Below are positions 10,201 through 60,125 of a stretch of 64,000 bases of DNA, piece after piece. Within the stretch, counting starts at the first letter, position 1, and every line of letters starts with the position of its first letter. Source of the DNA: a virus; IMG/VR virus record IMGVR_UViG_3300035670_000065, positions 47,993-111,992 of that record, one strand, 5' to 3'. The position numbers were made by a program, and so were the translations under genes. The notes under the pieces were generated by a model. The model worked only from the letters and a program-made list of their open reading frames with translations. It had not been told where the DNA came from and searched no databases.

Positions 10201-13200
10201 TCCTTATACGCTTCTTTTTCCTTAGTTGTAGCAGCTCGGGTATTATATACTGGGTCGGAATCTGCACTTCCTTGACTGACAAGGTCCTTTACCAGATAAG
10301 AATCTACTTTATCTTTTATTATCCCATCTAGCTTTGATTTGGCTGAGGCTACTTTATCTTGAGCTAATCCTATAGAAGCACTATTGACAACCGGATTTGC
10401 AATAGTGGGGCCAAACTGAGGAGTCTTAGGATTTAGAAATCCCAGTACTCTTTCCCCTCTATTATATTTATCCAGTAACTCTTGGGAATCTAGGAAATTA
10501 ATACCTGCTTGCTCGAAGGATAGTGTTACAGTACGTAGTTGGCCAGCTAATCTTATGAATGTTTCTCCGAGCCCCTCACCTACTTGTTGGAAGGCTTCAA
10601 TCCACGGAGTGGCTTTAGTTATTAAGCTATCAAATGCCTTACTAAATACACCTTGTAGAGCATCTGCAATTTCATCCCCTTTTAGTCCCTGTAAAGAGAC
10701 TCTTAGATCAATAGGTACATCCTCTAAAGATTTCATTATAGGGTCAATAGCTTGGATAGTGTATCCTAGGGTACTGAGCCCTTCAGATATTGAGGTATCC
10801 ATTTCCTTGAATACTAGGGATAACTGTTTAGGGACTTCCCCAGTTACCTTCTTAATATTTTCAGAGATGCTAGTACCACTGTCTGCTCCAAAACCTAAAA
10901 ATCCCGAATCTTGCCAATGTGTGGCTACTGTCTCGTACTCATTAACTATTGCAGTTACATTCTTAATTGCGGAACTGGTACCTTTAATTATTAGACCTTT
11001 ATCTACAATTTCTGTAGAACTAGAAGAGCTTCCAAATATTAAGCTGGCTAATCCACCTCCGCCTCCGCCACTCTTTCCTTCTACAGTTCCGAATGATGAA
11101 GTTTTACTTAGGATATTAGTACTTCTAGCAATTCCTCCTGCCATCTCTGCAATATTAACATCGACGCTTCTTAAGGCGCGTAGCATAGACTGGTTGTAAT
11201 CTAGCATTTCAAAGCTATGTTCTGCTAGAATTTCAATACCTGAACGGATTGAGTCAGACTTGGCTGTAGAGTCACCTAGTACAGATCCTGTGCCTTGTTT
11301 TTCTTGTCTTTCTTCGGCGGTAATTCCGGTTGGGATGGATACTGAAGCACTACTACCACCACCTAGGCTAGACATAATTGCTAACATAGCGGCTACGGCC
11401 GCAAATCCTAGGGGTCCCATAGTACTAAACATGGAGGCTGCTCCGGCGGCTGTTTTTACAGGTATACTAGCAGCATGCGCTGCTGTTACAGCCCCTTCTA
11501 CAGCTACTTCTGCAGTTCCTCCGGCTATTATAGCAGAAATTTTAGATCCTAATAAACTTATCTCTTTAGTAAATTCTACCACCATCATGGCCATTTTAGC
11601 CATATGCATAGTTTTCTCTATACCATCAAGTACTTTGTAAGCTACTGTCTTTTCAGAGAACATCTTCTTGAAAGCGCCAGCACCTGTACCTATTACATCT
11701 AATTGGTTCTTTAGAGAGTCTTTTTGATACTTCTTCTCTATTTTAGCGTCGGCCTCATAGAACTCTTTAGTATCAGCTCCATACTCCTTCAATGCTTTTA
11801 ATTTTTGATCTATAAGATTTTTATCTAGGCCTTCTTGCTTAGAAGTAAAGTCCGTTAAAGCCTTAACGCCTTTAGACAGTCCATCAGCAATTGAATCCCC
11901 TACGTCGCCAAATACTGCAGACAGAGATCTACCGAATTCCTCTGTATCTTTTAGGAGTGCGGAAATTCCTGCCATTTCTTCTTTATACTTGGCTGCTGCA
12001 TCTGCTCCGGCGTTGGTTGCGTCATTAACAGCAATAGTACTATCTCTTACAGCATTTTGTTGTAGTACTAGTGCAACAAGTAGGTCTACCTGTTTCTGTC
12101 TTGAAGCATTTAAGTCATCTATTAGTGCAGTATTTGGTTCTGAACTGTCTTTGGCAGCCTGTATACTAGCATCAATATTGGATATTTTTCCTTGTACCCC
12201 TGTCTGTGCTTCTTTATCTGCTAAGGCTTGTTTTTCTAGTTCTAAGGCTTGTTTTCTTTGTGAGGCTTCTGCTTCAATTCTATTTAAGCTCTTTACATGC
12301 TCAAGTTCTGTTATAGCCCCCAATTCTTTTAGCCTATCTAGCTGGGAGGTTGCATTAGACTCTTGTGCTTGTGTTAGGTTCTCTAAGTTAGTCTTATCTT
12401 TTAGGCTATTCTGATCTTTAATACTGGCTATTTTTGCTTCGTTAGTAAATGCTACTTCTGCGGCAGCACCTGCTTTCTCTATGTATGCAAATCTAGCCTG
12501 TTCAATTTTCTCATCAAATCCCTTATTACTCTGGGCCTTTAAACCTTCCTGCTGAGCTATAAGCTTTTTATTTCCTTTAGAACGACTTATTAGCTCTTCA
12601 AATTTTGCAGCTTCAGCGACCTGTTCAGTAGCTAACTTGCTAATCTCTAGGTCTCGTTGTTGGGCGTCTATAGCTAGTTTAGCCGAAATAGATTTATTAG
12701 CGTAAATACCCTCTTCCTTAATAAGGAAGTCTAGTCTTTTTGCCTCATTATCTAGTTCTTCTTTCTTTAACGCTAAAGATTTTTGGGTCTGCTTTAGGGC
12801 CTCTGCTCGTATTTCTCTCTGATTAGTTAGGGAGGCTTCTTGAGACTTAAGAGCTGCTGCATACTTTTGCTCATCTCGAGCCATTAAAGCCCCTTGCGCT
12901 CCAGATAAGTTGTCGTCACCTTTTAAGCTTTTTCCATCTGCAGTGCCTGCTTGTACTGCTTTAAGCTTACCTTCTGAAACCTTTAGACTATCAATTAGAT
13001 CTACTAGTTTTTTGGCCGTTGGATCTTCTTGACCAGGTTTTAAGGCATCTGGATTATCTTTAAGTTTTAGAGCAAGTTGGTTAACTGCAATTAATCTTTC
13101 ATTTGATAACTTTAGACCCTCTTGGGATAGTAATAATTTAAATCTGCTATCTATAGCCTGCTGCTCAATACCTATTTCTTGCTGTGCAATGGCCCCTCTG

Positions 13201-16094
13201 GCTTTAACAGCCTCAGTTCCTTCAGCACCTGATAGAATAGCTTTAGATAACCCTAAAGAAGCTTTAGCTTTAGCCCTCTCCATGCCTGCTTCCATTTCAA
13301 CTAAGGAGGCTCTTATTCCTTCTAGCAGACTAGCTTTTAGGGATTCTTTTAACTTTTCTTGCTCAGTTTTTAAGTCCTTTATTCTGTTAGTAACTCCAAT
13401 TATTGCAGTACCATATAAACTCATCTGACGGGATTGTTCCTCAGTTATGCCTTCGCCTGCTTGCATAGCGTAGTTAATTTCATCCCGTAGTTTAGCTTCT
13501 TCTTTCTGAAATTTAGCTTTATCTTCGGAGTACTTTTTCTCTAAATTAGCTATCTCCTCAATTGCCGGTCTCATGGCTAAGAGTTTCTGTTGCTCCCCTT
13601 CGGGCAGTAGCTTTAAGGTTCCCGTATCAGAGATAATTTTAGTTAAGGAGGCCATACCCTCTTCAGCGGTTGTTATACCAGTAACCAGTTCTTGGAAACC
13701 TTTAGCAGAAGTTTGAGCAATTTTAGCTACAGGATCTGACACGGCTAGAGAATTAACATACGTGTCATATTCTTTAGTGGCTGCGGTTAGACTCTCGAAA
13801 CCTGATTTGATTTTAGAAATAGGGTTATTAATGTCATTACTAGCTTCTTGCCAAGCTTTGCCAATTTGTTTAGCAGCTTCCGGAGCTTTGTCCATTAAGT
13901 CATTTAAAGCAGCTTCTAGCAGCTTAGGGTCACCCAGCAACAATTTAGGGTCAAGGCCGGCTTTTGTTAGCTTGCTATTTAACCTATCTTTAACATCGGA
14001 ACTATCAATTAACTTAATACCTTCAGTTAAAGATTTTGATAAACTTTTCGCAATATCATTTTTAGCACTACCTCCAAATAGTCCCTTAACCCAGTCTTTA
14101 GCCTTATCCCACCCAGAAGCTTCGTCTAAGGTCTTAGCAAAAGATTTACCTGTTTTATTAATAGAGTCACTTAACTCATTAAAGGCCTGAGCTTTAGCAG
14201 ATATGGATTCTACTCCTATACGCTCTAAGGGGTCTTTTTCAGCTATAAAAGATAGGGTTCTCTGGGCTCCTTCTGCTGCGGAATCCAGGGTTTTTAAGTC
14301 CTCTGAAAATTCTTCGGCAGCTTTTCCATTTTTAGAGAAAAGTTTATCAAGCCCTGCAAGTGCTATGGCTCCTATAGCTATCACCATAAATATCTGGTTA
14401 ATAGCGGCACTTAGTAGCTCTACCCCTACCATAGCCAATCTTGCCGCGGCACCTAGTCTAATATACGCCGCCCCTAGCATTCCTATTCTGGCTCCACCTT
14501 CTCCTACGGCGGCATTGTGTCTAGCAATGTCTGCTCCTATCTCTTTCCAGGCATATTTGATGCCACCAGTTTCCGCATTTTCTACTACGGAGTTACTAAT
14601 ACGGCGAGATCCTGCACGTCTAGTTAGTCTATCAGCATTTCTCTGTCTTAAATCTAGTTCACGGTCTGGAGCATCACTTCTACCTTCTGCAGCTTCTGCA
14701 GCTTGTTGAGCCGCAGTTACGGCCCTTATTTCCCCCTGTAAAGCAATGTACGCTAATCTCTTGTCATTTAGGGACTTAAGGGCTGCCTCATTCGCCAGTT
14801 TTTCGGCTCCGCTACTTTGTTGTACTTTAGCAGACATATTTGTAATAGCAGTATCTATGGCAGATAGTTTTTTACCTGTCTCTGCCGCAGCTAGTCCAAG
14901 ATCTTTGGCCCCTCCTGCTATTGCATAAAATGTGGCGCTTTTCTTACCAAATAATTTGTTCTCTTCCATTAGCTGTACGGCTTTAACTCTCGAAGCTTCT
15001 GCAACTTTGTCGTATTCCGCAGCTTCAACACCATACTTATTAGATTTAAACTCAGCTAAACTAGTATTAATGCGCTTTGCTCTGGCTTCTGCCTCGTCTG
15101 CTGCGGCTGCTAATCCCCCTCTCCATTGAGAGAGGGCAGGGATGGCCTTACTTAGAAGCATTCCAGCTATTCCAGCCATTGCAGCCCCTAAAGCTACTGG
15201 AGATTCACCCAGTATTTTAGCAATGGGTCCTAAAACTTTATTTATTAACTGTCCACCAGCTATTGCTAAGTTGGTAAATGTTGCCAGCAATTTCTGATAC
15301 GGGTTAGCGTCTATATTAATAGATCCAAACTTCTTCTCACCCTGTTCAAGTACTGCAATAGCAAAAGACTGGCGTTTTTCAAATTCTGTTAACTGTGTAG
15401 CTGTCTTTCCTAGGGTTATAGCATAGTCTCTGGCTGCGCGGTCTACCTTAACCATAATGCCTAGTTCGTCTAGTAATTCTGGCTCAATTTTAGTAATACC
15501 ACGGGATAGGCGACTAAGAGCATCTCCCATATCACGACCTAGTGCCTGTGATGCAGTTTTTGCAATCTTAGTCATACGTTCCATCTGTTGACTTGTAAGA
15601 CCTGCTGCGTTGCCCTGAGCTACCGCAGCCATACTTTCCTTCATATTTACTGCGCCATCACTGATCTCAGACATGCGTTTAGCAAGAGTACCAAGATTCT
15701 TTCCACTAGCTGCGCCTAGCTGATTTAAGCCCTCTACCATGTTTGTAACGTCTGCGGCTTTGCTAAGAGCATTGAACGCGGCACTAACGGCGAAGATATT
15801 GGCGGCGAATGTAGCATAGACGTGCACAAGCCCGCCTAAGCCTTGGGCTTGGCGTGCGAAGTCTCGGGATCCTCCACGTTCCATACTACCAGCAGTTCCA
15901 CGTCCTAAGCCTTCGGCTGTAGGACCATCTTGGGGCCTGGCTGCGCGTGCAGCGCTGGTTTGCGAAGCTGGTCGAATATTATTAGCAATATTCTGCGCTC
16001 TACTTAGTTCTCTGTTTAACCCCTGGGCATCTCTTGTAGCTTGTGAGATGTCAGTATTAAGGTTAAGACGCATATTAATAGTATTACTCGTCAT
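7287..16094 (-). CDS. Tape measure protein (T5 pb2-like)
   Basis: 2935 aa, helical and Ala/Lys-rich; N-terminus RDFARQAQGLGGLVHVYATFAANIFA...ELLDELGI is T5 pb2-like; C-terminal YARGG...LVGEEGPELV. Confidence 0.93.
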   Translation of the reverse strand: MTSNTINMRLNLNTDISQATRDAQGLNRELSRAQNIANNIRPASQTSAARAARPQDGPTAEGLGRGTAGSMERGGSRDFARQAQGLGGLVHVYATFAANIFAVSAAFNALSKAADVTNMVEGLNQLGAASGKNLGTLAKRMSEISDGAVNMKESMAAVAQGNAAGLTSQQMERMTKIAKTASQALGRDMGDALSRLSRGITKIEPELLDELGIMVKVDRAARDYAITLGKTATQLTEFEKRQSFAIAVLEQGEKKFGSINIDANPYQKLLATFTNLAIAGGQLINKVLGPIAKILGESPVALGAAMAGIAGMLLSKAIPALSQWRGGLAAAADEAEARAKRINTSLAEFKSNKYGVEAAEYDKVAEASRVKAVQLMEENKLFGKKSATFYAIAGGAKDLGLAAAETGKKLSAIDTAITNMSAKVQQSSGAEKLANEAALKSLNDKRLAYIALQGEIRAVTAAQQAAEAAEGRSDAPDRELDLRQRNADRLTRRAGSRRISNSVVENAETGGIKYAWKEIGADIARHNAAVGEGGARIGMLGAAYIRLGAAARLAMVGVELLSAAINQIFMVIAIGAIALAGLDKLFSKNGKAAEEFSEDLKTLDSAAEGAQRTLSFIAEKDPLERIGVESISAKAQAFNELSDSINKTGKSFAKTLDEASGWDKAKDWVKGLFGGSAKNDIAKSLSKSLTEGIKLIDSSDVKDRLNSKLTKAGLDPKLLLGDPKLLEAALNDLMDKAPEAAKQIGKAWQEASNDINNPISKIKSGFESLTAATKEYDTYVNSLAVSDPVAKIAQTSAKGFQELVTGITTAEEGMASLTKIISDTGTLKLLPEGEQQKLLAMRPAIEEIANLEKKYSEDKAKFQKEEAKLRDEINYAMQAGEGITEEQSRQMSLYGTAIIGVTNRIKDLKTEQEKLKESLKASLLEGIRASLVEMEAGMERAKAKASLGLSKAILSGAEGTEAVKARGAIAQQEIGIEQQAIDSRFKLLLSQEGLKLSNERLIAVNQLALKLKDNPDALKPGQEDPTAKKLVDLIDSLKVSEGKLKAVQAGTADGKSLKGDDNLSGAQGALMARDEQKYAAALKSQEASLTNQREIRAEALKQTQKSLALKKEELDNEAKRLDFLIKEEGIYANKSISAKLAIDAQQRDLEISKLATEQVAEAAKFEELISRSKGNKKLIAQQEGLKAQSNKGFDEKIEQARFAYIEKAGAAAEVAFTNEAKIASIKDQNSLKDKTNLENLTQAQESNATSQLDRLKELGAITELEHVKSLNRIEAEASQRKQALELEKQALADKEAQTGVQGKISNIDASIQAAKDSSEPNTALIDDLNASRQKQVDLLVALVLQQNAVRDSTIAVNDATNAGADAAAKYKEEMAGISALLKDTEEFGRSLSAVFGDVGDSIADGLSKGVKALTDFTSKQEGLDKNLIDQKLKALKEYGADTKEFYEADAKIEKKYQKDSLKNQLDVIGTGAGAFKKMFSEKTVAYKVLDGIEKTMHMAKMAMMVVEFTKEISLLGSKISAIIAGGTAEVAVEGAVTAAHAASIPVKTAAGAASMFSTMGPLGFAAVAAMLAIMSSLGGGSSASVSIPTGITAEERQEKQGTGSVLGDSTAKSDSIRSGIEILAEHSFEMLDYNQSMLRALRSVDVNIAEMAGGIARSTNILSKTSSFGTVEGKSGGGGGGLASLIFGSSSSSTEIVDKGLIIKGTSSAIKNVTAIVNEYETVATHWQDSGFLGFGADSGTSISENIKKVTGEVPKQLSLVFKEMDTSISEGLSTLGYTIQAIDPIMKSLEDVPIDLRVSLQGLKGDEIADALQGVFSKAFDSLITKATPWIEAFQQVGEGLGETFIRLAGQLRTVTLSFEQAGINFLDSQELLDKYNRGERVLGFLNPKTPQFGPTIANPVVNSASIGLAQDKVASAKSKLDGIIKDKVDSYLVKDLVSQGSADSDPVYNTRAATTKEKEAYKEVLANNMLTSSSKEVQSAAKELADAEKELADATRTGANDAEAFVYQVIKLQDSLVKGAGGLESFTEKMEFYTDNFLTETEKLDPVRFRLFNTFQDTRAASGKDNALGDAIPGLGKQLKDFGLQVPKTKAEFKSAFTTVSESLSTTGQAGIDLLNSLLDVMPAFEAVASAEEARAQLLFDTNVAIQEVSGGMLDQFQAQEALTTSTRANILATEDLSSANIAAYESLWKLEDGAKKAELFGISISGMQDNIMDSFKDGKNVGKELGTYLADSLSIGLANTFASQVGSIIMNTVVTPLMKNVVIGEGVVKLASNISVAGMITTAQEQITKLSTVFKTLLSSPEWKNLIASLSSGFNIDMPDFGVRDIQLRKDAEKDSKKDAEDSAKKLADILKQLAEDTKKAERELARLGLSTWERQQAEVNDKVEDYTAKLLEVGATLEQVTSSTSTYAAAQLALYKAQNKRAADNKVTEITDRIFEITSTAAQKALVDIDKQTAAFTKFFEDIGQLTSETEKLIGTFRKALVAQQQLALNNQKLTLEQRIYNLTGRESQANAISREQELSGTSEQFKPILEYIYALEDAKEIQEKLNDTYTESVKVLRDNVKALRDYKKSLLLSDSSTLTPTQKYGEAKSQYEATVIAALTRGSTEAEKTAQQAAIDKLPEVSDKFLEASRGLFASSAQYTQDFNSVLQMLDSTAISLSAQADVEQLQLDALGIIATNTQTTAQLTAQLGIAMDAVKNTLGAAIAAGSGAAGGSYTQPNIYNDLVSGLYKDTLGRKGESTGMDYWMGQLSSGALDTTTITKAFNNEAYKEIVNDLYYKGLGRAPEQAGYDYWLTQLQTGAVGLSNIKGVFAHSASQNGEVFRQYARGGLASGMSLVGEEGPELVDFATPARVYPAGQTMGMLSTNNTELLQELKYLREEVKRMREEQIKHTGSLITSTYDSSNRMAEAVAEAVDTAVSEVVWADRSKVRMV

Positions 16095-27977: not shown

Positions 27978-29190
27978 AAACTAACTCACGTAAATCTTTC
28001 TCAACGCAGTCAAATACATATTCCCACGATTGAGGATTATCATATATTTCAACGTCATTATACCACACACTACGTCGTACACCATTACCCCATCTAAAGT
28101 CAGTCTCCTTATACGGCTGCAATACCCAAGTTCTAGCCCCAAGAGACCCAGCTAAATGAACTACAGATGTATCTACCGAAATTACGAGATCAAGTCCGTT
28201 AATACACTCCGCCGTATCAGTCCACGAGCCAATGTCCAACGAACGCACATACGGAGGAACGATAGCACCGGGCGCCAGACTATATAAGTTGCAAAAATTA
28301 GCAAGCCGCTTAAAACGCCCCACACTAGTGCTACGATACCTATCATTAGCATGAGTAGGAGAGCCAGCCCATACAATACCAACATTGAAGCCCGGACCAA
28401 TATCTCTAACACTGAATTTACCACGTAACCAATCTCCACTAGGAATATCACTAAAACACTCGCCTAAACTACAAATAGGGTAGGCCACTAAATCAGACGA
28501 CGAAATATCCACCGCATCCCGCACACACTCATAATCGCTAAAAAGTACCTCTAAAGAAGGGTGGCATTGGACGAATACTCGCTCAAACTTTTCAGCTAAT
28601 AATGACAAGTACCTACCAAACATAATATTATCCCCAATACCTTGTTCGGTTAAAACTACTATATCCTTACCAGGACTAACACGATCCCAGTAGTTCAGTC
28701 CTTCCCGTGTATTCTTTAGCTTAATAGGAGGATTCTTTAGGAACCTAGCACGGTACTCCTCCCAAGCTGGTGGAAATACATCGAGCTTTCCAGAACTAGC
28801 TTGACGTAAAAGAGCAGTAGATAGATTCCAATGCGCTTCCCAGAAATCTCCCTTGCGCATGATAGCCTTCATGTACGTATCTACAGCACGAGTATCGTCC
28901 CCATACATATAGTACGCTAGACCTAAATTGTTGAGAGCGTGCAAATCGGTTCCGCTATTAGGGTCTAGGAAAGGGACTTTATCTTCTAAAGCCAGTTTAT
29001 AGCAGCGTATCATATCTTTGTCTTGGCCTAATGCTTTATAGCAGTTGCCAATATTTACATACGCTTCTTTACATGGATACTCCGCTAATACTTTTTTAAG
29101 CATTGGAAGTGCCCTTTTCACGTTACCTTTAGTTAGGTACTCTGTTGCCTTATTATAGTCTAAGGTTATTTTAGTTAAGTTTTCTATCAT
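27970..29190 (-). CDS. TPR-repeat protein fused to a GT-B (GT9/heptosyltransferase-like) glycosyltransferase domain
   Basis: AYVNIGNCYKALG and ALNNLGLAYY TPRs; EQGIGDNIMFGRY, VGIVWAGSPTH.ND..R, LDLVISVDTSVVHLAGSLG, DFRW. Confidence 0.85.
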   Translation of the reverse strand: MIENLTKITLDYNKATEYLTKGNVKRALPMLKKVLAEYPCKEAYVNIGNCYKALGQDKDMIRCYKLALEDKVPFLDPNSGTDLHALNNLGLAYYMYGDDTRAVDTYMKAIMRKGDFWEAHWNLSTALLRQASSGKLDVFPPAWEEYRARFLKNPPIKLKNTREGLNYWDRVSPGKDIVVLTEQGIGDNIMFGRYLSLLAEKFERVFVQCHPSLEVLFSDYECVRDAVDISSSDLVAYPICSLGECFSDIPSGDWLRGKFSVRDIGPGFNVGIVWAGSPTHANDRYRSTSVGRFKRLANFCNLYSLAPGAIVPPYVRSLDIGSWTDTAECINGLDLVISVDTSVVHLAGSLGARTWVLQPYKETDFRWGNGVRRSVWYNDVEIYDNPQSWEYVFDCVEKDLRELVYA

Positions 29191-29663
29191 TCTTTCGGCG
29201 CTAAAAGTTTTGCTATAAGGCTACCATACTTGGTGCCGTCCCCGCCAAACTCATTCATTTGAACATTTACCTGAGTCTGGACTTTGTTTCCTTGTTTTAT
29301 CTTCTCTAATTGAATCTCCCGGTCTAAGATATCCATTGACATCTTGTGAGACATCTGTAGTAAATCTGCGATATCCTTTGACGATCCGACCTCAGCCTCA
29401 TCTAACTCTTCAAGCTTTTTCTGGATGAGTAAATCCATGACTTGTCGCATTCTAAAGCGATTGTTGAACCCTATGTCAGCGAACACGGAATTAATGTACG
29501 CTCGCACTTCAGGGCGCTCTAGGATCTCTGCGATGTGATCTTTAGGGTAACCTAAAGCATCTGATACTTTTTGGATCGAATTACATCCAAGATATTCATT
29601 TGCGACCTCTAACCCCTCAGGGGAGATCTGTACTGCTTGGGCTGGAGAGGCTACTGGTAACAT
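29187..29663 (-). CDS. terS: Terminase small subunit (T5-like)
   Basis: ISPEGLEVANEYL...SSKDIADLL...YGSLIAKL, T5-like; upstream of terL. Confidence 0.85.
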   Translation of the reverse strand: MLPVASPAQAVQISPEGLEVANEYLGCNSIQKVSDALGYPKDHIAEILERPEVRAYINSVFADIGFNNRFRMRQVMDLLIQKKLEELDEAEVGSSKDIADLLQMSHKMSMDILDREIQLEKIKQGNKVQTQVNVQMNEFGGDGTKYGSLIAKLLAPKE

Positions 29664-29692
29664 AATAGGATAAAAGTTGTGGCAATGATGAT

Positions 29693-29721
29693 ATTATAGC
29701 AGGTTTAGGGAATGTTGTCAA
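29693..29721 (-). promoter_or_regulatory. sigma70-type promoter for the terminase/late operon
   Basis: Minus strand TTGACA-17-TATAAT; similar promoters near 16137-16166 and 25817-25846. Confidence 0.7.
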
Positions 29722-30265
29722 GTGTGAAAATTTTGGATGGGTGTGGACACGATGCTACACCTTAGGGTCGATAGCGAAAAAACCAAAATATTTTCTCTGC
29801 GTGCTACACTTGTTACACCTTAGGGTCAGTCGAAAAATCTCATAATATTTTCTCTGGGGGTGGGCCCTGCTGTTGTAGGAAAACAACAAGTCTACTAACC
29901 CCCTCTATTATAGCACACTTCCTTCTCACGTGTCAAATCAAATTTTCTTATGTATATAATAAACTTTCCTTATATGCCTGGAGCATACCCTGGCCCTGTT
30001 ACAATTTGTTACAATTAGATGCTTGCATTGCGATGCGAATCGGAGCATAATAGCTTCATTGGATGACTAACGAGGTAACACGAAATGACACAGAAACTGT
30101 TTAACGCATACGCAACAAAGCATGGCATCTTCACCGCTATCTCGTTGTTCCATGTGCTCACGCAAGACAAGGCTCTCATCAAGAATTTGGTTACAGAATT
30201 TCGCACTTGATTTTGTTGTTTAACTGATTTATAATAGATTCTTACACACTACGAAAGGAAACAAA

Positions 30266-30610
30266 ATGACTACCAAAACCGTGAATTACACTCCTGAGCA
30301 AACTGCTGCCGTTGTTGCTGATTACCAAGCAGGCGTGAGCGTTGAGCAAATTGCTGTTGCTGTGGGCAAGAGCGTGCGAAGCGTGGTTGCGAAACTGTCA
30401 CGTGAGGGCGTATATGCCAAGAAGGTATATACTACGAAGAACGGTGATGCCGTTGTCAAGAAGGACGCACTAGCGTCTGAGCTGATGCTGTTGGTCGGTC
30501 TGACCGAGGCCGAGGCCGATAGCTTGGCTAAGGCTAACAAGACAGCGTTGGCTAAGATCGTGGCCGTTGTCAAGGCTAACGTGGTGAGCGATGCTAATGA
30601 CGTAAGCTAA
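30266..30610 (+). CDS. T5 A2/D3-like DNA-binding protein, paralogue 1
   Basis: NYTPEQTA...IAVAVGKSVRSVVAKLSREGVY HTH-like motif. Confidence 0.7.
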   Translation: MTTKTVNYTPEQTAAVVADYQAGVSVEQIAVAVGKSVRSVVAKLSREGVYAKKVYTTKNGDAVVKKDALASELMLLVGLTEAEADSLAKANKTALAKIVAVVKANVVSDANDVS

Positions 30611-30673
30611 TAGCATAACATTATGCCGATGGCGTAAGCTGTCGGCATAATGTTAGCATTATGTGAAGCGAAT

Positions 30674-30743
30674 AAAAAAGGCCTTATAAATCAAGGACTT
30701 AGGCCAGGGGCCTGGCTAACCTATTGATTTATAAGGCTTTTTT
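30674..30743. repeat. 70-bp palindromic element, copy 1 of 5 (inverted pair of IHF-consensus sites)
   Basis: AATCAAGGACTTA-15-TAACCTATTGATT flanked by A/T tracts. Confidence 0.85.
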
Positions 30744-31302
30744 GGGTGTTGTAAAAATACCACAGGCGCGCCATTATACCACATCCCCCTAGGGATGTCA
30801 AATAGAATGTTTTTATAATCAGCATAAGGTGAGCTTATATGCTGTTAGCATACTAGCCTATGCTAACAGCATAATGACACGAGCATACCCTGGCCGATTC
30901 CTGTTACATCTTGTTACAATTAGGCGCTTGCATTTCCTGGGCGATGAGAGCATAATACATTCATTGGATAAATGAATGAAAGGAAACAAAATGTTCGGAA
31001 GCACTTTTAACAGCAATTACATCATCGCGATGATGGACGTTTATTTCGAATCCGTAGAAGATACTAATCTCGGAATGGAAGAAACTGTTTATATTCTTTT
31101 TAGCATGGGATGCGAGATCTAATCATGTTTAACATTATTCTTACCGATACTTATAACGACTATTCAAAGACGGTTTTCCGTTCTAATTCGCGTGAAATGG
31201 CAATTCAGATTCGCGATGAAATGAATCGCTTGAATGCTGAGGCTGCCCGCTTGACTGGTCGCGCTATCCGTTATGCTTATTCGATTCTTCAGGTAAAATA
31301 AA

Positions 31303-31686
31303 ATGGCTAAATATGATACCGTTAAATTGCAGCGCATCGCGGAAACGTGGGCGATGGAATGGTGGAAGGCTGCGCGTAAAATATGGGGTGATAATATCGG
31401 CGCAATGCCTGCAATTAGAATGAATCCGCGTTTAACTGCTACGGGCGGGCGTGCATTCCTAGATCATAACTATTGCGATTTTTCATGTTATCTCATGGAA
31501 CGGGAACCGGACTATTATAAATCAAATACTATTCCGCATGAATTGGCGCATCATATTGCATGGCGTTTATATAAAGATAATGGACACGGCAAGGCATGGA
31601 AGGACGTTTCTAAAATGTTATATGGCGATGATAATCGCTGTCACTCCATGGGAACAAAATACCATCATCAAAAGGCGGGTAAATAA
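31303..31686 (+). CDS. SprT-like zinc metalloprotease
   Basis: RLTATGGRA...IPHELAH...HGKAWK. Confidence 0.8.
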   Translation: MAKYDTVKLQRIAETWAMEWWKAARKIWGDNIGAMPAIRMNPRLTATGGRAFLDHNYCDFSCYLMEREPDYYKSNTIPHELAHHIAWRLYKDNGHGKAWKDVSKMLYGDDNRCHSMGTKYHHQKAGK

Positions 31687-31791
31687 TATGCTTGGGCTAA
31701 TAATGTTTATTTCAATTATGATACTTATCAATGCCGTATTATTGGAAATATATTACGACGATGACTAGGCAAGGAACGTGCCAGGAGCAAT

Positions 31792-31865
31792 AAGAAAAAG
31801 GCCTTTAGAATCAAGGACTTACGGGGGCCCTGGCCTAAGCCTTTGATTTATAAGGCTTTTTTCTT
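31792..31865. repeat. Palindromic IHF-pair element, copy 2
   Basis: AATCAAGGACTTA-14-TAAGCCTTTGATT. Confidence 0.85.
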
Positions 31866-32106
31866 GCACTTGTCATTATGAAATGTTTTTATGGGCACAT
31901 AAGCGCAGCTTATGGGGTGCGCCAAAATTATACCACACTATTTGACCACGGTCAAATCAAATGTTTTTATGAAGGGCATAAGCCTGGCTTATGATGCTTG
32001 TTACAATTTGTTACAATTCCTGGGCGATTATTTTCAAAAAACGCTTGCATTCTTTTCTGGAAGGACTATAATTCTCTACATGGACACAACGAAAGGAAAC
32101 AGCAAG

Positions 32107-32571
32107 ATGATTAAAAAGGTTGAAATTTTCGACATGGATGGCACGATTGTTGATTCGACGCATCGCTATCGGACAATGCCATGTGGCACGAAAATTGATT
32201 TGCAATTCTGGCGTGATAATCAAGATAAGGCAATGGATGATAAACTGTTGCCGCTTGCGGATTACTATAAGGAATGCTTGGCAAATCCTAATGTTTATGT
32301 TATTATTGCGACTGCGCGTGTATTAAATGAACCGGATTATAAATTTATTAACGAAATTCTCGGAAAACCAGATTATATTATTTCTCGCAAACCCGATTCT
32401 AACATTTCTGGCGGGTTGCTTAAAATAAATGGATTGGCTAAATTCTTTAATCTTCGCAATTTCAAAAACGCAACATTCACTTTTTATGAGGATAATGTAA
32501 GCTACTTAAAAGCGGTTTGCGATAAATTCAATATAAACGGCGTATATTGTCCGTCGAAACAGGGGCACTAA
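32107..32571 (+). CDS. HAD-family phosphatase (PNK 3'-phosphatase/nucleotidase-like)
   Basis: IFDMDGT motif I, ATAR motif II, FYEDN motif IV; ATG at 32107 after an AAGGA RBS. Confidence 0.8.
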   Translation: MIKKVEIFDMDGTIVDSTHRYRTMPCGTKIDLQFWRDNQDKAMDDKLLPLADYYKECLANPNVYVIIATARVLNEPDYKFINEILGKPDYIISRKPDSNISGGLLKINGLAKFFNLRNFKNATFTFYEDNVSYLKAVCDKFNINGVYCPSKQGH

Positions 32572-32719
32572 AATGATAGAAAAGATTTTCAATTTTGTAT
32601 CAATAATCGTTATTTTTCTGTTTATTACGATTGTTCCCTATGCTTGCACTACTAAAATAGTTAATCTGTAATTAAACGCGATAATCCGGCGATTCCGGTA
32701 TTAAATAAAGGGTAATAAA

Positions 32720-33415
32720 ATGAGCAAAAAACAATTTTTTCTAATCGTTGATACTGAAACCACAATTACAGATAAGGTTTTTGATTTTGGCGCAATTGTT
32801 GCAGATCGCAATGGTAATATCGTGGCGCAATGCGCGGTTATCGTTTCGGATTTTATGGGCGATGAATTGTTTTATGATGCAAAAGATAATGGTTTTTGGG
32901 GTAAAAAGGCTGCCGTTGAACGTAAAATTAAATATGATGCAATGGTTAAATCCGGTGCTCGGATGGTTGCATCTGCTAATGCTGTGAATCGTTGGCTTGA
33001 AAAAGTTGCTGCAAAATATAATCCTACTCTCACGGCTTATAATCTTGCATTTGATCGCAATAAATGCGCGAATACTGGAATTGATTTAACCATGTTCTCG
33101 AATTCTTTTTGTTTGTGGCATTTGTCTTGCGCGGTATTTGCTAAGACTAAGGGTTATCGTCAATTTGTTTTGAATAATCATTATTTTGGTAATCGTACCG
33201 ATAAGGGCAATATGACTTATAAAACAAATGCTGAAGTTATGGCGCATTATGTTATCGGACAATTTAGCGAAGAACCGCATACAGCATTAGAAGACGCACA
33301 ATTTTATGAATTGCCAATTTTGGTTTCTATTCTAAAGAAACGCGATTATAAAGATAAAATCGGTCAAGCTTATAATTGGAAAGATTACCAATTAAAAGAT
33401 AATTTCACGGCTTAA
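32720..33415 (+). CDS. DEDDh 3'-5' exonuclease
   Basis: IVDTET, AYNLAFD, HTALEDA. Confidence 0.85.
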   Translation: MSKKQFFLIVDTETTITDKVFDFGAIVADRNGNIVAQCAVIVSDFMGDELFYDAKDNGFWGKKAAVERKIKYDAMVKSGARMVASANAVNRWLEKVAAKYNPTLTAYNLAFDRNKCANTGIDLTMFSNSFCLWHLSCAVFAKTKGYRQFVLNNHYFGNRTDKGNMTYKTNAEVMAHYVIGQFSEEPHTALEDAQFYELPILVSILKKRDYKDKIGQAYNWKDYQLKDNFTA

Positions 33416-33503
33416 TAAGCCGTTATAATAGCCGGATTATATCCGGCTATTATTTCGCCCAGGCCTGTTACAATTTGTTACAATTTTTCTATGCTCCCAG
33501 CAT

Positions 33504-33575
33504 CGAAAAAACCCTTTAAAATCAAGGACTTAGGCCAGGGCCTGGCTAACTCATTGATTTTAAAGGCTTTTTTCG
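33504..33575. repeat. Palindromic IHF-pair element, copy 3
   Basis: AATCAAGGACTTA-14-TAACTCATTGATT. Confidence 0.85.
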
Positions 33576-33828
33576 GGTGGTGGCTGGCACGGTTATTGCT
33601 CTGTTACATCTTGTTACAATTCCTGGGGCGTATCATGCAAAAAATGCTTGACTTCGCTATCCGTGGGCGTATAATTCACTACATGGACAAACAACAAGGA
33701 AACAGCAAAATGAACAACGACAAAATTTATATCTACAACCGCGAATGGAAATGCGTGAATAATGCACTGGCTGCGTTTATTCTAATAAAGGTTTCGGGTT
33801 ACACTCTCATGGCTAAAGGTAAATAATA

Positions 33829-34038
33829 ATGATTAAATGGATTGGAACAATTGCGGGAATTATCGGTTCCCTATTGGTTGCGATGAATAACGGTTTGCAG
33901 TTTATCGGATATTCTGCTTTCCTGATTGGTGCGGTATCGTGGCTAATCGCTTCTATTCAAAATAAGGATAAAGCGGGAATCGCACAATGGGGATTTTTTA
34001 CTGCCGTAAATATTATGGGGATTATAAATTATGTTTGA
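33829..34038 (+). CDS. Small membrane protein
   Basis: 69 aa with about three hydrophobic segments. Confidence 0.55.
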   Translation: MIKWIGTIAGIIGSLLVAMNNGLQFIGYSAFLIGAVSWLIASIQNKDKAGIAQWGFFTAVNIMGIINYV

Positions 34039-34151
34039 TTTGGTCGATGAAATGATGGGGGAAGAATTGGTTGATTTTGAAACTTTGGAATCTGCCGGAT
34101 TAGAAGATTCTTATTGCGGGGATACTGTTCCCGCTGCACAAAAGGCATATT

Positions 34152-34496
34152 ATGATGATGAACAATAAAGAATTAGAGGTTTTAGATTTTGCTTATGACT
34201 TCTGCAATATGATGAAATGGGAATTACCAATCGAACGCGTTAGAATAACCAAAATGATGCGTTATAAGGGATTATGCACAAATGACGGCGAGCGCATTTA
34301 TCTGGTATTATCCGAAACGACTAACGAAGATAATAAAGACTTTTTCGCTACGCTAATTCATGAGTTAATCCATGCGAAATTGATTATGACAAAGCACTGG
34401 AAAAAGGCGCATAAACATGGTAAATTGTTTAAGCGAATAGCTAAGAAAATCGAAAAGAAAACAAATGGATTTTATACTGTAAAGGAAATAATATAA
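34152..34496 (+). CDS. SprT-like zinc metalloprotease (second copy)
   Basis: TLIHELIH...HGKLFK. Confidence 0.75.
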   Translation: MMMNNKELEVLDFAYDFCNMMKWELPIERVRITKMMRYKGLCTNDGERIYLVLSETTNEDNKDFFATLIHELIHAKLIMTKHWKKAHKHGKLFKRIAKKIEKKTNGFYTVKEII

Positions 34497-34519
34497 CCGC
34501 CGAAAGGCGGTTTTTTATT
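34495..34519 (+). terminator. Intrinsic terminator
   Basis: aaccgcc-gaaa-ggcggtt plus T-tract; an identical hairpin lies at about 35624-35648. Confidence 0.8.
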
Positions 34520-34579
34520 GCCATATAATCCAGGCTGGCACGATTCTTGCGCCGAAATTTTCGTGCCAGGCAGGGCCAG

Positions 34580-34649
34580 AAAAAAGCCTTTAAAATCAAG
34601 GACTTAGGCGGGCCCCTGGCGTAAGTCATTGATTACAAAGGGAATTTTT
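34580..34649. repeat. Palindromic IHF-pair element, copy 4
   Basis: AATCAAGGACTTA-15-TAAGTCATTGATT. Confidence 0.8.
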
Positions 34650-34901
34650 AGGTGCTCGTCATAATATGCCTGGAGGATGCTTTAGGTTTCAAGTAATGAT
34701 GGAGGCATTATGCACATGGGATACTTGACATTTCAAATAAGACCTGGGCATCCTGTTCTGTTACATCCTGTTACACTTCCTGGCGCACAATGTTGAAAAA
34801 ACGCTTGCAATATTTTTGGAAGGGCGTATAATTCTTTACATCGGATGATGAACTGACCTAGCGAAACCCGATACTCTCAATCAGGTCAAGGAGAATCAAA
34901 A

Positions 34902-35258
34902 ATGGCTGCTAAAACGACTGTTGCGAACTACTCGGACGATCAAGTTGCCCGCATCGAACAAGCTGCGGTTGCGGCTGGTGGCAAAATCAATGCCGCTGTT
35001 GCTGAAATGCTTGCGGTTGAAATGGCGAAATCGGTTCGCTCACTGGTTGCGAAAGCCTCGCGTATGGGCCTCTACGCTGCGAAAACCTACGTTCGCAAGG
35101 ATGATACTCCGGTTCAGAAAAAGGATGAGTTTGCGACTGCGATTGGTAACATTCTTCGTCTGAGCGAAGCTGATACCGACTCGCTTGCGAAAGCTAATCG
35201 CAAGGGGCTGCAGGCGATATTTAACGCCCTTGCGAATTCAACTCCGATTGACGGCTAA
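34902..35258 (+). CDS. T5 A2/D3-like DNA-binding protein, paralogue 2
   Basis: NYSDDQ...KSVRSLVAKASRMGLY...KKD...DSLAKAN; clearly paralogous to 30266. Confidence 0.7.
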   Translation: MAAKTTVANYSDDQVARIEQAAVAAGGKINAAVAEMLAVEMAKSVRSLVAKASRMGLYAAKTYVRKDDTPVQKKDEFATAIGNILRLSEADTDSLAKANRKGLQAIFNALANSTPIDG

Positions 35259-35731
35259 TCGGTAAAAGGTTTGCCGGATTACCTTGGAAATCCGGCTTAT
35301 TCTAATAAGGGATTATATTATGATGCGACTGACTCTTGATTATTCTGATTTTGGCGTCGATTCGATTGTAGATAGCGAATCGGTTATTGTTGAGAAACTC
35401 GAAAAGAAACTCGAAGATGAATTCTGTAATTGGGATATTGATATGGCTTTTGATTGGGATACTCTGCAACTCGATCACGTTAATGGTTATATTGAAATCG
35501 GGTTTTCCGAATTTAACTAAGGGGATACAATGAGCGAATATGATACCTATATGATGATTGAAGAATACGTCTGGTTTATTCAATTTATACTCCAGATGCT
35601 AGGATTAGATATTGAATTCTTTTAACCGCCGAAAGGCGGTTTTTATTTGTCTGGGCAACTCTTATATAAGACATAAGAACTCTTATATAAGACCTGTCTT
35701 ATGTCTTATATAAGACCCAGGAGCCTCACTA

Positions 35732-35807
35732 ACGAAAAAAGCCTTTAAAATCAAGGACTTAGCCCAGGGCCCCCATAACCTATTGATTTGTCAAGACTAT
35801 TTTTCGT
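35732..35807. repeat. Palindromic IHF-pair element, copy 5
   Basis: AATCAAGGACTTA-14-TAACCTATTGATT. Confidence 0.8.
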
Positions 35808-36865
35808 AACCACCGGCCTCGGCGTGGAAGTGAGCACTCACTCCCGACCCTAAATTGTAGCAAGTTTCGTGCCACCGAAAAGAGGATAAACCTGTCCCAA
35901 TTTAGGGTCAATGTGTTGCGTGGAACCAACAGGTGTATGTTTCACGCAACACCGGAGGTGAGCACTCACTTCGCACCTGGCGCGGTGCGCCCCAGTGCAA
36001 AAACTTCAAGTGCAAAATCTCCATGGTTCTGCGCCCATTATAGCAAGTGCAAAACCTCTGTGTCAAGATCAAATTTTTAAGCCCTGACCCTAAATTGAGC
36101 AAATACCTCCAGCCACAGCCCGCCTGCGCCGGCCGCCGCAAGTGCAAAAACTTCAGTGTGGCCGCTGCAACTTAGGGTCAGGGCTGTCAAGATTATTTTT
36201 TAAGAGCCACCTGCGCCCATTATACTCCGGCACCTCCCCAATTGTCAAGACAGGATTTCTGACCCTAAATTGGGCAAAGTCGAGCAGATTCGAGTAAAAG
36301 CGAGCATATTTGAGCAATTTGATGCAATTTGCGTTAATTTAGGGTCAGGACGTAGCAAATTGGACCACCAATAAAAAATCGGGGGTAGGCTACTTTGTAA
36401 GCAGTTACAACCTGCGTAATTTCCGTCTTGATTTAGAATCCTGGTCAGCGTATAATACTAATCATTGGGAGAGAAAAATATCTTCCTGGTGTCAGAGAAG
36501 AAAAATTGAACTTGAAGAACGATGATTAAGCGTTTATAATATGTAAATGATGTGAGAGAAAGGGAACGATATGAATGATGAACAAGTCACATCGCTTTGG
36601 TACGATACGACTGAAACCTGGGGTGTTACCGTAGATGAAGCACAATTCGTGACATTGCAAGATACCTTAGTAGCTTTCGACTTACTTGAAGATTTTGAGT
36701 TTTGAAAATTTGATGTTGATTCAGTAACTGAGACGCTTTATAATACTTACATAGGGTGATGAAACAGACTGACCCTAAATTGAACGAACTGTAACAGACT
36801 GACCCTAAGTTGAACAAACTATAGCAAACTTTTATATCACTAACCAGTCCAAGGAGACTCTAATT

Positions 36866-37165
36866 ATGACCACCAAGACCGTGAACTACACCCCCGAAAT
36901 GACTGCCGCTGTTATTGATGCTTACAAGAACGGTGATACCGTCGAAGCAATCGCTGTTGCAACCGGTAAGTCCGTCCGTTCCATCGTTGCAAAGCTGTCC
37001 CGCGAAGGTGTCTACGCAGCGAAAGCGAAGACTGCGGGTGCTGTAAAGGGTGCTACCAAAACCGAGCTGGTTGCTCAGATTGCTGAAAAGCACGGTGTCG
37101 AAGCTGACGCACTTGCTGGACTCGAAAAGGTAAACAAGGACGTATTGCTTATCCTGTGTTCCTGA
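36866..37165 (+). CDS. T5 A2/D3-like DNA-binding protein, paralogue 3
   Basis: MTTKTVNYTPE...GKSVRSIVAKLSREGVY, N-terminus nearly identical to 30266. Confidence 0.7.
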   Translation: MTTKTVNYTPEMTAAVIDAYKNGDTVEAIAVATGKSVRSIVAKLSREGVYAAKAKTAGAVKGATKTELVAQIAEKHGVEADALAGLEKVNKDVLLILCS

Positions 37166-37305
37166 CCCTCCTGGGTTGACCCTAAATTGCAGCAAGCAGT
37201 AGCTCCAGATCGAAAGGTCTGGAGCTTTTTTATTATTGTATAAAAAGACAAAGAGCTCTTATTTTGCATAATAAAAAAGGGAGCCGATTTCTCAGCCCCC
37301 TTAAC

Positions 37306-37638
37306 TTAAATCTTCTCCCGCAGCGACTTCTCAATTAAAATCAATGCAGTTTTCGTTACCTTCTCCATCGACTCTAATAAATCAATATTCAAATCCAATA
37401 GAGTAGCGATGCGTTGGATATATTCTTCTTTACGAACAGGGGGTTCCCCCCGTTTATTTAAGTACTCTTTCTTTTTATAAATTCCTAGAGAACTCAGCTT
37501 AGCGATAATTGACCTAGGTGGAATTTGCTCATTCACTTGTTCAGATACCCAGTCTGCTATTTGCTCAATACTTTTTCCAGACTTATAGTCTGATACAACT
37601 TGATTAGTTATCTCTATAGTGTATTTCATATTACTCAT
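37306..37638 (-). CDS. T5 A2/D3-like protein, paralogue 4
   Basis: RSIIAKLSSLGIYKKKEY...SMEKVTKTAL. Confidence 0.6.
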   Translation of the reverse strand: MSNMKYTIEITNQVVSDYKSGKSIEQIADWVSEQVNEQIPPRSIIAKLSSLGIYKKKEYLNKRGEPPVRKEEYIQRIATLLDLNIDLLESMEKVTKTALILIEKSLREKI

Positions 37639-38719: not shown

Positions 38720-39805
38720 TCAATTTTTTTCATCCCCATAAGCTAGAGATAATATTTCTGATTTAGTGGCTAAGGACCAGCCTTTAGTTGACTTTTGATC
38801 TCCTTTAATTACTAGAGAAAGGGACTGTTTTAGCAGGCTATGAGTTGCTGCGAATGCAGATACTCCTCTTTCGTATATTCTATAGAGTTTATTGTCCGGA
38901 GATTTAATCGTGGCTATTTGCTTAGCAGGCTGTAGATACCAACCCTCATATATCTTTAAATACCCATTTAGAAGCTGCTTGACCCTAGTCTGTTCTAGGT
39001 TGTGAGACTGGCAGAATTGCTTAACATCTAGAACCTCTGTCTTTTTGCCATCTTTATATAGGTAGATAGATTCTATAAACTTATGTCTTTTCCGGTCTAT
39101 TCTATCTATGACTAGGAACGCTTTAGGATGTTCCTCTCTTAGATAGTGATGGGACCTACCTGCTAGAATGGATCTAATAGTATCTTCAGCAACTCCCGTG
39201 GATTCTTCAATCTCTCTAACTAACAATTTAGGGTCTTGAAGAAGCTCTAGTACCTTTAGGATCTGTTCTTCTGTGAATTTTGCTCTCTGATGTGAGTGTC
39301 CTTGTTTACGACGAGAAGTCTGCAATATCTTTAGGAACTCTTCGGGGAACTCCTCCTGAATCCAGGTATGAGTTCTGCCTGCTTTAATATTATATAGCTG
39401 CCCTTCACTAATACCTGTTATTTTCTCTATATCTTTAAGAGATAATTCCGGATCTTGCAAAAGAGGTAGAGCCTGTATAATCTGTTCTTTACTGTATTTA
39501 GCTCTAGGGTGCTCTGTACCTCCTCTAAATATATCTACTTCCGCAATATTGAGACCTTGATTAATAGAGTTTAACCTATCAATCCAGTAAGCTTCTCTAG
39601 AGTTGAGATCAATTATCCTACATTCTTCTATAATTTCTAAATTGGGTAGCCCACACATTTCATACGCTTCATTCAACTTAGGGTTATAATGCCCCTGTTC
39701 AAAAGAATACTTATGTGCTTTAAACCTTGCTTCTATATTTCTAGACTGCCCAACATAGGGCCAATCTTCCAACCCTTCAAACACTAACTTGTAAATACCT
39801 ATCAT
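38720..39805 (-). CDS. GIY-YIG homing endonuclease with repeated HTH-like domains
   Basis: IGIYKL...YVGQSRNIEARF; duplicated H.RAK(Y/F)..EQI...L.LLQDP.L repeat. Confidence 0.85.
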   Translation of the reverse strand: MIGIYKLVFEGLEDWPYVGQSRNIEARFKAHKYSFEQGHYNPKLNEAYEMCGLPNLEIIEECRIIDLNSREAYWIDRLNSINQGLNIAEVDIFRGGTEHPRAKYSKEQIIQALPLLQDPELSLKDIEKITGISEGQLYNIKAGRTHTWIQEEFPEEFLKILQTSRRKQGHSHQRAKFTEEQILKVLELLQDPKLLVREIEESTGVAEDTIRSILAGRSHHYLREEHPKAFLVIDRIDRKRHKFIESIYLYKDGKKTEVLDVKQFCQSHNLEQTRVKQLLNGYLKIYEGWYLQPAKQIATIKSPDNKLYRIYERGVSAFAATHSLLKQSLSLVIKGDQKSTKGWSLATKSEILSLAYGDEKN

Positions 39806-59254: not shown

Positions 59255-59900
59255 CTAAGGAGATTGTTATGCGAATGTAGATAACTTTACAGGAGTATAA
59301 TATGTCTAGAACTTTTAGAAAACAGCCATACACCTGGCGTAGTACAGATCCTTTGTTTGACTGGACGTGTTGCGAGGACGAGGTAGTATGGGAAGATGTA
59401 GAATATGCTTTTATTAACAGAGACTTTGGTCAGTGGTCACGTTACACTTACTATACTGTTAAGTACAAAGCAGATAGCAAAACAGGGAAGAGACTGTTAG
59501 CGCGTAGCAAGATGGACAAGGTTATTACCTTCAAAGAGCCAGGACCCTCGTGGTTTCGTAACCTTTTTGAAGAGCGTCCTCTGCGTCGTAATAGCAAACG
59601 TGAACTTCAGAAGTTCATGTACGATGAAGGCTACGAACCTATCATAGATTCTATCCCGCGCAAAAAGATTTACTGGACATGAACAGCTACACTCGATAAC
59701 CGATAAGAAGCCGGAGTTTCCGGAACTACTGGTGGAAGGCCGAGGAAGTAGGGCTGGCGTTGATTCAATCTCATTCATGTTCATCCTATTCAAGCTAGAA
59801 CAAAACGAGAACGGGATGCGAACCCTAGATATCGACAAAACTAGCCCCTGTCGCAAGGGAACGGTGGACTACCCTGATAAAGTGGCTGCCGTGAAACTAA

Positions 59901-60125
59901 TTCGGTGATGGCAAAGTAAAAGTATTCAAGACACGGGTTCGACTCCCGTCATTTCCAAGACTACGGGAATGTAACGGCTTCGATTGGGTATGACTAGCAA
60001 TGCCGGAGAATCGTCAGCTAAGACGTAAAAACAACGCATAATAAATGCAAACGATGAAAGATATAGCCTAGCTGCTTAAGTTAGGCGAAGGTTTCGGGAC
60101 TGTCCCTTCTTACCAATACAGTCCC
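59901..60125 (+). ncRNA. ssrA: Circularly permuted (two-piece) tmRNA, tag ANDERYSLAA
   Basis: T-arm plus 3' acceptor CATTTCC-A (59950-59957) precede 5' acceptor GGGAATG (59965-59971; G3-U70); tag ORF 60047-60079; 5' boundary approximate. Confidence 0.88.

Follow-up and report, generated by a model that had tools for sequence, protein, structure and literature searches.

Composite terminator/promoter motifs termed promoter-early stem-loops (PeSLs) bound mobile early cassettes in T4-type phages (PMC2839356, PMC4122927), and in phage T5 the DnaA boxes of the iss region have been proposed to arrest injection (Davison, bioRxiv 10.1101/866236). The region considered here occupies positions 29664-36450 of a 64-kb window, the whole stretch of DNA analysed, which forms the final 64 kb of a 111,992-bp IMG/VR record (IMGVR_UViG_3300035670_000065; linear, estimated complete, from a subsurface metagenome). 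A first-pass annotation had described the motifs crowded into its intergenic blocks as sites of unrelated classes for host DNA-binding proteins; they are instead parts of one promoter/terminator module repeated at cassette boundaries, not independent site classes. Comparison of sequences establishes that the module exists, is repeated and has been conserved in a large metagenomic clade.

The closest published analogue is the PeSL cassette, and the region is a T5-lineage variant of it to which an antisense promoter and IHF-type and sigma54-type words have been added. As in PeSLs, a stem-loop and a sigma70 early promoter form one repeated unit, here represented by five hairpins that adjoin consensus promoters in a fixed order, and these units border small early-gene cassettes, are alike within the genome and enclose contents that vary between relatives. 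Unlike PeSLs, the present module belongs to a T5-like rather than a T4-like lineage, is larger (approximately 250-400 bp), has a strong antisense promoter, marked by a GGCGC discriminator, that is directed at the stem-loop, and includes IHF-type, sigma54-type and direct-repeat words, while recombination at the modules is only hinted at by contigs that join palindromes. The large terminase subunit (TerL) has 47% identity to its counterparts in T5-like phages, which are siphoviruses, placing the genome outside the T4-type myoviruses to which the PeSL class belongs. With the PeSL cassettes and the repeat-rich iss region of T5 as close precedents, the proposal that the region constitutes an undescribed system does not hold.

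Architecture of the module

Each intergenic block presents its elements in the same order (repeat analysis, families D1-D8, and sequence). The end of a rightward gene is followed by a 70-bp element in which an A-run and a T-run enclose two inverted WATCAA-N4-TTR words, then by a leftward promoter with GGCGC after its -10 box, short palindromes, two copies of TGTTACA, and finally the next gene, preceded by a rightward promoter and a ribosome-binding site. Distances between modules are 1074-1711 bp, each interval containing one to four small open reading frames (ORFs), and the genes there are small, comprising two SprT-like genes, a dmp homologue, a gene for a 231-aa protein, several tiny ORFs and two of four helix-turn-helix (HTH) paralogues.

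The five palindromes have predicted folding energies of -16 to -36 kcal/mol; four form long hairpins (-31 to -36 kcal/mol, z -3.4 to -5.9), whereas the remaining one is degraded. Palindrome 1 (30675-30744), in which two inverted WATCAA-N4-TTR words lie between A-run and T-run flanks, folds at -34.7 kcal/mol (z -4.9), palindrome 2 (31794-31863) at -34.8 kcal/mol and palindrome 3 (33505-33574) at -35.8 kcal/mol (z -5.9), palindrome 4 (34579-34648) has a degraded right outer arm, and palindrome 5 lies at 35734-35803. A scan against Rfam returned only sub-threshold matches to plastid 3' untranslated regions, located on the palindromes. A reading of the palindromes as long RNA hairpins was not established, with covariation at the level of shuffled sequences; the terminator shape remains.

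Leftward sigma70 promoters matching TTGACA-N17/18-TATAAT at 12 of 12 positions lie at 29721, 29936, 30801, 36066 and 36248, and an 11/12 match lies at 31955. The perfect promoter at 30773-30801 (-), TTGACA-17-TATAAT followed by GGCGCGCC, fires into palindrome 1 and has a predicted RNA of about 100 nt without an ORF, and the promoter at 31927-31955 (-), TTGACC-17-TATAAT followed by TTTGGCGC, fires into palindrome 2. Leftward transcripts are predicted to reach about 100-130 nt at most and to end in the hairpin, apart from those of the two perfect leftward promoters of an 825-bp non-coding block (36066-36037 and 36248-36219), predicted at about 300-480 nt. The initial description of these promoters as antisense and lacking a gene applies to four of the six; those at 29721 and 29936, the only ones to face a gene, point towards terS. 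On the rightward side, the TGTTACA pair always stands at a fixed distance from the -35 box, as at 30902-30918 (+), where 6 nt separate it from the -35 box that follows in a rightward promoter, with further copies at 29997, 31999, 33466, 33602 and 34759.

Taken as a whole, the region probably (at roughly 0.55) represents the early, T5 pre-early-like block of an uncultured T5-related phage, in which five to six small cassettes share a composite control module. In such a block, the 70-bp A-run/palindrome/T-run element would serve as a two-way terminator and insulator, the leftward near-perfect sigma70 promoter with its GC-rich discriminator (TATAAT-N0-3-GGCGC) would fire into the palindrome and yield only a short non-coding RNA, and the TGTTACA pair would lie upstream of the -35 of the rightward promoter driving the next cassette. 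The module would thereby set early transcription and insulation, and may also be a site of homologous exchange between cassettes, as PeSLs are in T4-type phages. Subclade-specific words, namely TGTTACA, GACCCTAAATTG and GTGAGCACTCAC, may be read by phage proteins, the four HTH paralogues being the obvious candidates, although most HTH-bearing relatives lack the TGTTACA pair. The IHF-type and sigma54-type words may additionally attract IHF and sigma54 RNA polymerase of the host.

Motif counts against chance

Motifs were counted on both strands of the whole 111,992-bp genome, and chance expectations were derived from dinucleotide shuffles of the 64-kb window. The IHF consensus WATCAANNNNTTR occurs at 15 sites genome-wide, of which ten lie in the region, all of them as inverted pairs within the five 70-bp palindromes; the window holds 12, compared with 4.5 expected. 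All four genomic copies of the sigma54-type box TGGCAC-N5-TTGC are in the region (31769-, 33585+, 34536+ and 35860-; 0.09 expected per window), as are all six exact copies of GTTACA-N4-GTTACA, a repeat of 10-bp period found only on the plus strand (0.01 expected per window), and both copies of the palindrome GTGAGCACTCAC (35830 and 35958). The motifs are thus non-random relative to shuffles, three classes are confined to this region of the genome, and they are kept in relatives, which bears out the site density first reported, together with its count of ten IHF sites in five inverted pairs and four sigma54 boxes.

The attribution of other motifs to host regulators fared less well. OmpR/RstA-type sites have the consensus TACATNTNGTTACA, which two of the six GTTACA-N4-GTTACA copies also fit. 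Nevertheless, the TGTTACA pair was found in only 8 of 80 related loci chosen by protein homology, and the others carry different AT-rich words of the AAAAATACAACATAGG type at the same position; the pair is therefore best described as a subclade-specific upstream promoter element, and consequently gives weak evidence for OmpR/RstA. The SlmA site is a 12-bp palindrome, GTGAGTACTCAC, to which the region offers two 11/12 matches as claimed; this SlmA-like palindrome, however, forms the core of a longer 20-bp palindrome, CGAAGTGAGCACTCACTTCG, located behind leftward GGCGC promoters in several subclades.

Conservation among relatives

Relatives were gathered in two ways. A scan of IMG/VR with a 21-nt promoter word yielded approximately 25 true relatives, and, to avoid a motif-based choice, 80 further loci were selected by homology to the HTH protein (family alignment); a search of IMG/VR for loci based on terS found no relative. 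The approximately 25 motif-selected relatives have protein identities of 50-75%, the same gene order (terL-terS, followed by the HTH, SprT, dmp and 231-aa genes) and the same words, and TerL identity is 58-70% in the relatives examined. The module architecture is present in dozens of related metagenomic phage contigs, and cassette content varies between them. Searches of the region by megablast and blastn against 50,697 phage records gave no match.

Among the protein-selected loci, 72 of 80 contain the TATAAT..GGCGC promoter (255 copies), and its spacer is also conserved in many copies. Locus L087 keeps the module layout around a hairpin of unrelated sequence, a gene being followed by the hairpin, the leftward GGCGC promoter, a rightward promoter and then the next gene, and L012 has four palindromes with an identical left arm. 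Contigs from the source metagenomes join palindromes to one another (30702>33541, 31821>34578 and 35763>34577), one such form being near the depth of the main genome, and the order or content of cassettes therefore differs in co-occurring relatives. PeSL-like composite cassettes would also structure the early genes of a T5-related lineage that is uncultured but very abundant (>4000 clusters of the marker HTH protein in metagenomes), with a module that includes an unusually conserved antisense promoter predicted to yield only a short hairpin RNA.

Two variants were observed besides. In many of the loci L085-L164, for example at L087:4395-4440, the leftward promoter is palindromic (CCAAAATTATA-N3-TATAATTTTGG) and therefore presents TATAAT on both strands, with a spacer shared between distant contigs. 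In locus L011 (4898-5007), at a distance of about 300 nt upstream of terS, the TGTTACA repeat unit forms an iteron-like tandem array of 11.5 copies (TGTTACATCT, period 10 bp).

Possible host-factor sites within the module

Several features sit poorly with a module that is only a promoter and a terminator. An alignment of nine palindromes drawn from two genomes shows no variation and full symmetry at WATCAA and TTR, whereas pairing at the N4 positions reaches only 50% of cells and compensatory changes do not exceed the frequency seen in shuffles; loci L044 and L083 retain the IHF-type word as direct repeats that form no hairpin. This pattern looks like that expected of a protein site with the IHF consensus, and not merely of a terminator. 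In the genome and the motif-selected relatives taken together, 21 of 142 distinct TGGCAC words have TTGC at a spacing of exactly N5, compared with 0.55 expected, and in the protein-selected loci the tally is 13 of 324, compared with 1.3 expected; plain promoter or terminator function leaves this preference for N5 unexplained.

Host binding of the IHF-type and sigma54-type boxes is plausible, because the boxes are conserved at exactly the positions read by IHF and sigma54. Under this explanation, which we entertain tentatively and at well below even odds, the palindromes would be paired high-affinity IHF sites and the TGGCAC-N5-TTGC boxes would bind sigma54 polymerase in stable, activator-free closed complexes; acting together, they would introduce bends, insulation or blocks at cassette borders, allow antisense transcription that depends on an activator, or sequester sigma54 as phage copies accumulate. 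Conservation limited to the IHF consensus positions, in inverted and direct arrangements alike (the N4 varies in L044, L051 and L083), speaks for such sites, as does an A-run 8-9 nt upstream of WATCAA, a feature also of the lambda H' site. Sister subclades, however, have hairpins at the same place that lack the IHF-type word, which is therefore an addition to the module and not its essence.

The sigma54-type box is enriched 10-38-fold across relatives, and its flanks fit the extended consensus, with C before and G after TGGCAC and T after TTGC. Two boxes stand exactly 26 nt outside an IHF-type word as mirror images (repeat I1): TGGCACGTTCCTTGC at 31769-31783 (-), directed away from the nearest IHF-type site of palindrome 2, and TGGCACGGTTATTGC at 33585-33599 (+), directed away from palindrome 3 towards the TGTTACA pair at 33602 and a promoter at 33648-33675. 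A third box, TGGCACGATTCTTGC (+), lies with an inverted near-copy, TGGCACGAAAATTTC (-), at 34536-34574, just left of palindrome 4, and the fourth is at 35860-35874 (-). In relatives, the boxes form tandem and inverted arrays (L006, L035, L074, L099 and L153), which in the first three consist of TGGCACGAATYTTGC adjoining GTGAGTGCTCAC.

The arrangement of the boxes is nevertheless awkward for sigma54 polymerase. Only 33585(+) has a gene downstream, one already served by its own sigma70 promoter; the other three aim into a terminator or run antisense to genes, with 34536(+) facing palindrome 4 and 31769(-) and 35860(-) being antisense or facing palindrome 5. Polymerase cannot occupy every box of a tandem array with an 18-bp spacing, and subclades share the spacer sequence GATTC, although sigma54 needs no particular spacer. 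The phage proteins gave no match to Pfam PF00158, PF04552 or PF00216, that is, to sigma54 activator, sigma54 or IHF/HU genes; the lack of an IHF/HU or sigma54-family protein encoded by the phage itself favours host factors as the readers, whereas the lack of a matching gene for an enhancer-binding AAA+ activator in the phage tells against sigma54-dependent transcription, a host activator being possible.

Two known arrangements offer partial parallels. IHF assists sigma54 (-24/-12) promoters in bacteria, such as Pu, nifH, glnHp2 and pspA, and here too TGGCAC-N5-TTGC adjoins IHF consensus sites; in contrast to those promoters, the IHF site is only 26 nt from the box, no activator site or gene is recognisable, most boxes have no gene to transcribe, and relatives carry tandem and inverted arrays. 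The RIP/RIB-type extragenic palindromes of Escherichia coli belong to the host chromosome, are built from REP elements and contain a single central IHF site. They share with the present palindromes their repetition and an IHF consensus at the 3' ends of transcription units, but have no sequence relation to them. No paper was found that describes sigma54-type boxes as recurrent in the early regions of virulent phages.

A bolder form of the proposal, rather unlikely, is that a large clade of uncultured T5-like phages keeps real docking arrays for IHF and sigma54 polymerase at its earliest cassette borders. These would act not as ordinary promoters but as roadblocks or insulators, or as a decoy for sigma54 holoenzyme that blunts sigma54-dependent host stress responses, and might also take part in a pause of DNA entry should the region be the first DNA to enter. 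Host binding, if true, would represent a new phage route to use or neutralise the sigma54 machinery and IHF, and would make it possible to test concretely a suggestion made for T5, namely that sites for host proteins matter in first-entering DNA.

Phage regulators as possible readers of the words

All of the words, including the IHF-like and sigma54-like ones, could alternatively be operators of phage regulators, from the HTH family or others, with their likeness to host consensus sequences being coincidental. Four HTH paralogues of about 110 aa (30266-30610 +, 34902-35258 +, 36866-37165 + and 37306-37638 -; 39-59% identity, alignment A1) lie among the sites. Their family is very widespread and highly conserved, with more than 4000 homologous clusters in metagenomes, many at least 70% identical to the query copy and thus above the 58-70% of TerL. 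The upstream elements vary between subclades, and the conserved spacer of the sigma54-like box points to a more specific reader. A structure model of the HTH protein has two three-helix bundles, weakly resembling bipartite HTH domains that read two adjacent half-sites. The supporting matches are slight, however: those to DNA-binding families in Pfam and PHROG are weak, with no Pfam family except PF26822 on one match, and searches of the fold by PDB sequence profile and Foldseek gave nothing significant, all Foldseek matches having E > 0.1. A chance match to two host consensus sequences at every informative position is unlikely, and we regard this explanation as improbable.

The word GACCCTAARTTG occurs in the leader of HTH paralogue 3 and, at three promoters elsewhere, overlaps the -35 box. 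The 8-mer GACCCTAA is present in 36 copies in 112 kb, with about 3.4 expected, and is possibly an operator of a phage regulator. Its copies mostly point in the direction of local transcription, a trend clearest over the second half of the window, where a few copies are reversed; of the five copies ahead of that half, four are reversed. It overlaps the -35 (TTGACC) of three promoters of the tRNA block (window copies 42841, 47909 and 57872), is tandem in the leader of HTH paralogue 3 (36771-36808) and upstream of terS (29762 and 29820), and occurs several times inside genes.

Possible first-injected DNA and the comparison with T5

The region had further been taken for probable first-injected DNA serving as a landing pad that would ratchet, anchor or pause injection, coat the incoming DNA or titrate host regulators. 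By analogy with Davison's proposal for DnaA boxes, the block would be first-step-transfer DNA whose sites hold, pause or protect the entering DNA, a scenario that appears about as doubtful as control by phage regulators alone. Resemblance to the first-step-transfer DNA of T5 (AY543070 annotation; bioRxiv 10.1101/866236) extends to the map position, a dmp homologue and strong sigma70 promoters. The succession of late genes, early block and tRNA/early genes is the T5 order with the terminal repeat collapsed, so that the position of the block matches that repeat, and the 825-bp repeat-rich non-coding block at the inner edge is positioned analogously to the iss region, or Repeat Region 3, of T5, where sites for a host DNA-binding protein (DnaA boxes) have already been proposed to matter. 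Exact Logan contigs within approximately 30.5-35.7 kb have 1.6-2.1 times the flank depth, an excess that might reflect a repeat; it is uneven, however, derives from assembled contigs only, and could be explained by co-occurring relatives that share the block.

Other comparisons point away from this scenario. None of the motif classes of the region occurs in the T5 long terminal repeat, there is no paired DnaA-box arrangement here, and the sites recur at every cassette border instead of marking one stop point. No match to homologues of A1 or A2 was obtained in the genome, in a search that had no positive control and could have missed distant homologues. The record is linear without end repeats, and no terminal repeat or physical end was found; near-complete relatives of 98-128 kb contain the block once, in the contig interior, and in a 124-kb relative flagged as having direct terminal repeats a weak match to dmp (30% identity) lies at 34 kb and not at either end. 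First-injected DNA is accordingly a reasonable analogy, based on the T5-like position and the dmp homologue, and not a finding.

Two other readings were rejected: an integron attC-like one for the TTAGGC/GCCTAA words, which lie at the apex and not the ends, with no integrase present, and a CsrA decoy for CAAGGAC, dropped because the promoters transcribe the opposite strand.

Gene content and surrounding features

To the left of the region, the minus strand encodes tail, head, portal, TerL and TerS proteins. The last gene of this leftward late/structural block, terS for the small terminase subunit (29187-29663, -; phrog_3802, E 9.6e-39), forms the left border. It is followed by the first intergenic block (29664-30265), with leftward sigma70 promoters at 29721-29693 and 29936-29907, the TGTTACA pair (29997-30013), rightward promoters, a 41-codon ORF and two 58-bp direct repeats containing GACCCTAAGGTGTA. 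Beyond HTH paralogue 1 (30266-30610, +), the cassettes encode a SprT-like metalloprotease-family protein (31303-31686, +; second copy 34152-34496; PF10263, E 1.2e-11 and 3.7e-10), a HAD-type phosphatase homologous to Dmp, a product of the T5 pre-early genes (32107-32571, +; BLASTP, 35% identity over 96 aa, E 8e-16) and the 231-aa protein (32720-33415, +; phrog_20187, E 4.5e-18), which is 51-66% identical in relatives and has weak similarity to DnaQ-like exonucleases (phrog_192, E 0.0018). HTH paralogue 2 (34902-35258, +) is the last of the two paralogues within the cassettes, and a tRNA search found no tRNA inside the region.

The 825-bp repeat-rich block (35626-36450) contains palindrome 5, the two copies of GTGAGCACTCAC and the fourth sigma54-type box, together with three copies of TCTTATATAAGA, six of GACCCTAAATTG in alternating orientation and four of CAAGTGCAAAA. 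After it comes the last rightward unit (36716-37240, +), composed of a promoter, a leader with two tandem copies of GACCCTAARTTG, HTH paralogue 3 (36866-37165), a copy of GACCCTAAATTG and a terminator (37201-37226), and then HTH paralogue 4 (37306-37638, -).

Further right are a few leftward genes including a homing endonuclease, followed by a block in rightward orientation that contains 20 tRNA genes and one tmRNA-like gene. The homing-endonuclease-like gene (361 aa, 38720-39805) has its own perfect promoter (39847) and separates the early cassettes from the tRNA block; an HNH gene likewise occurs within the pre-early repeat regions of T5. In the tail region, a single ORF of 2935 aa spans 7287-16094. 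Among the 20 phage tRNA genes, ARAGORN identified the tmRNA-like gene at 59868-60170, with the tag peptide ANDERYSLAA, a tag style that suggests a proteobacterial host.

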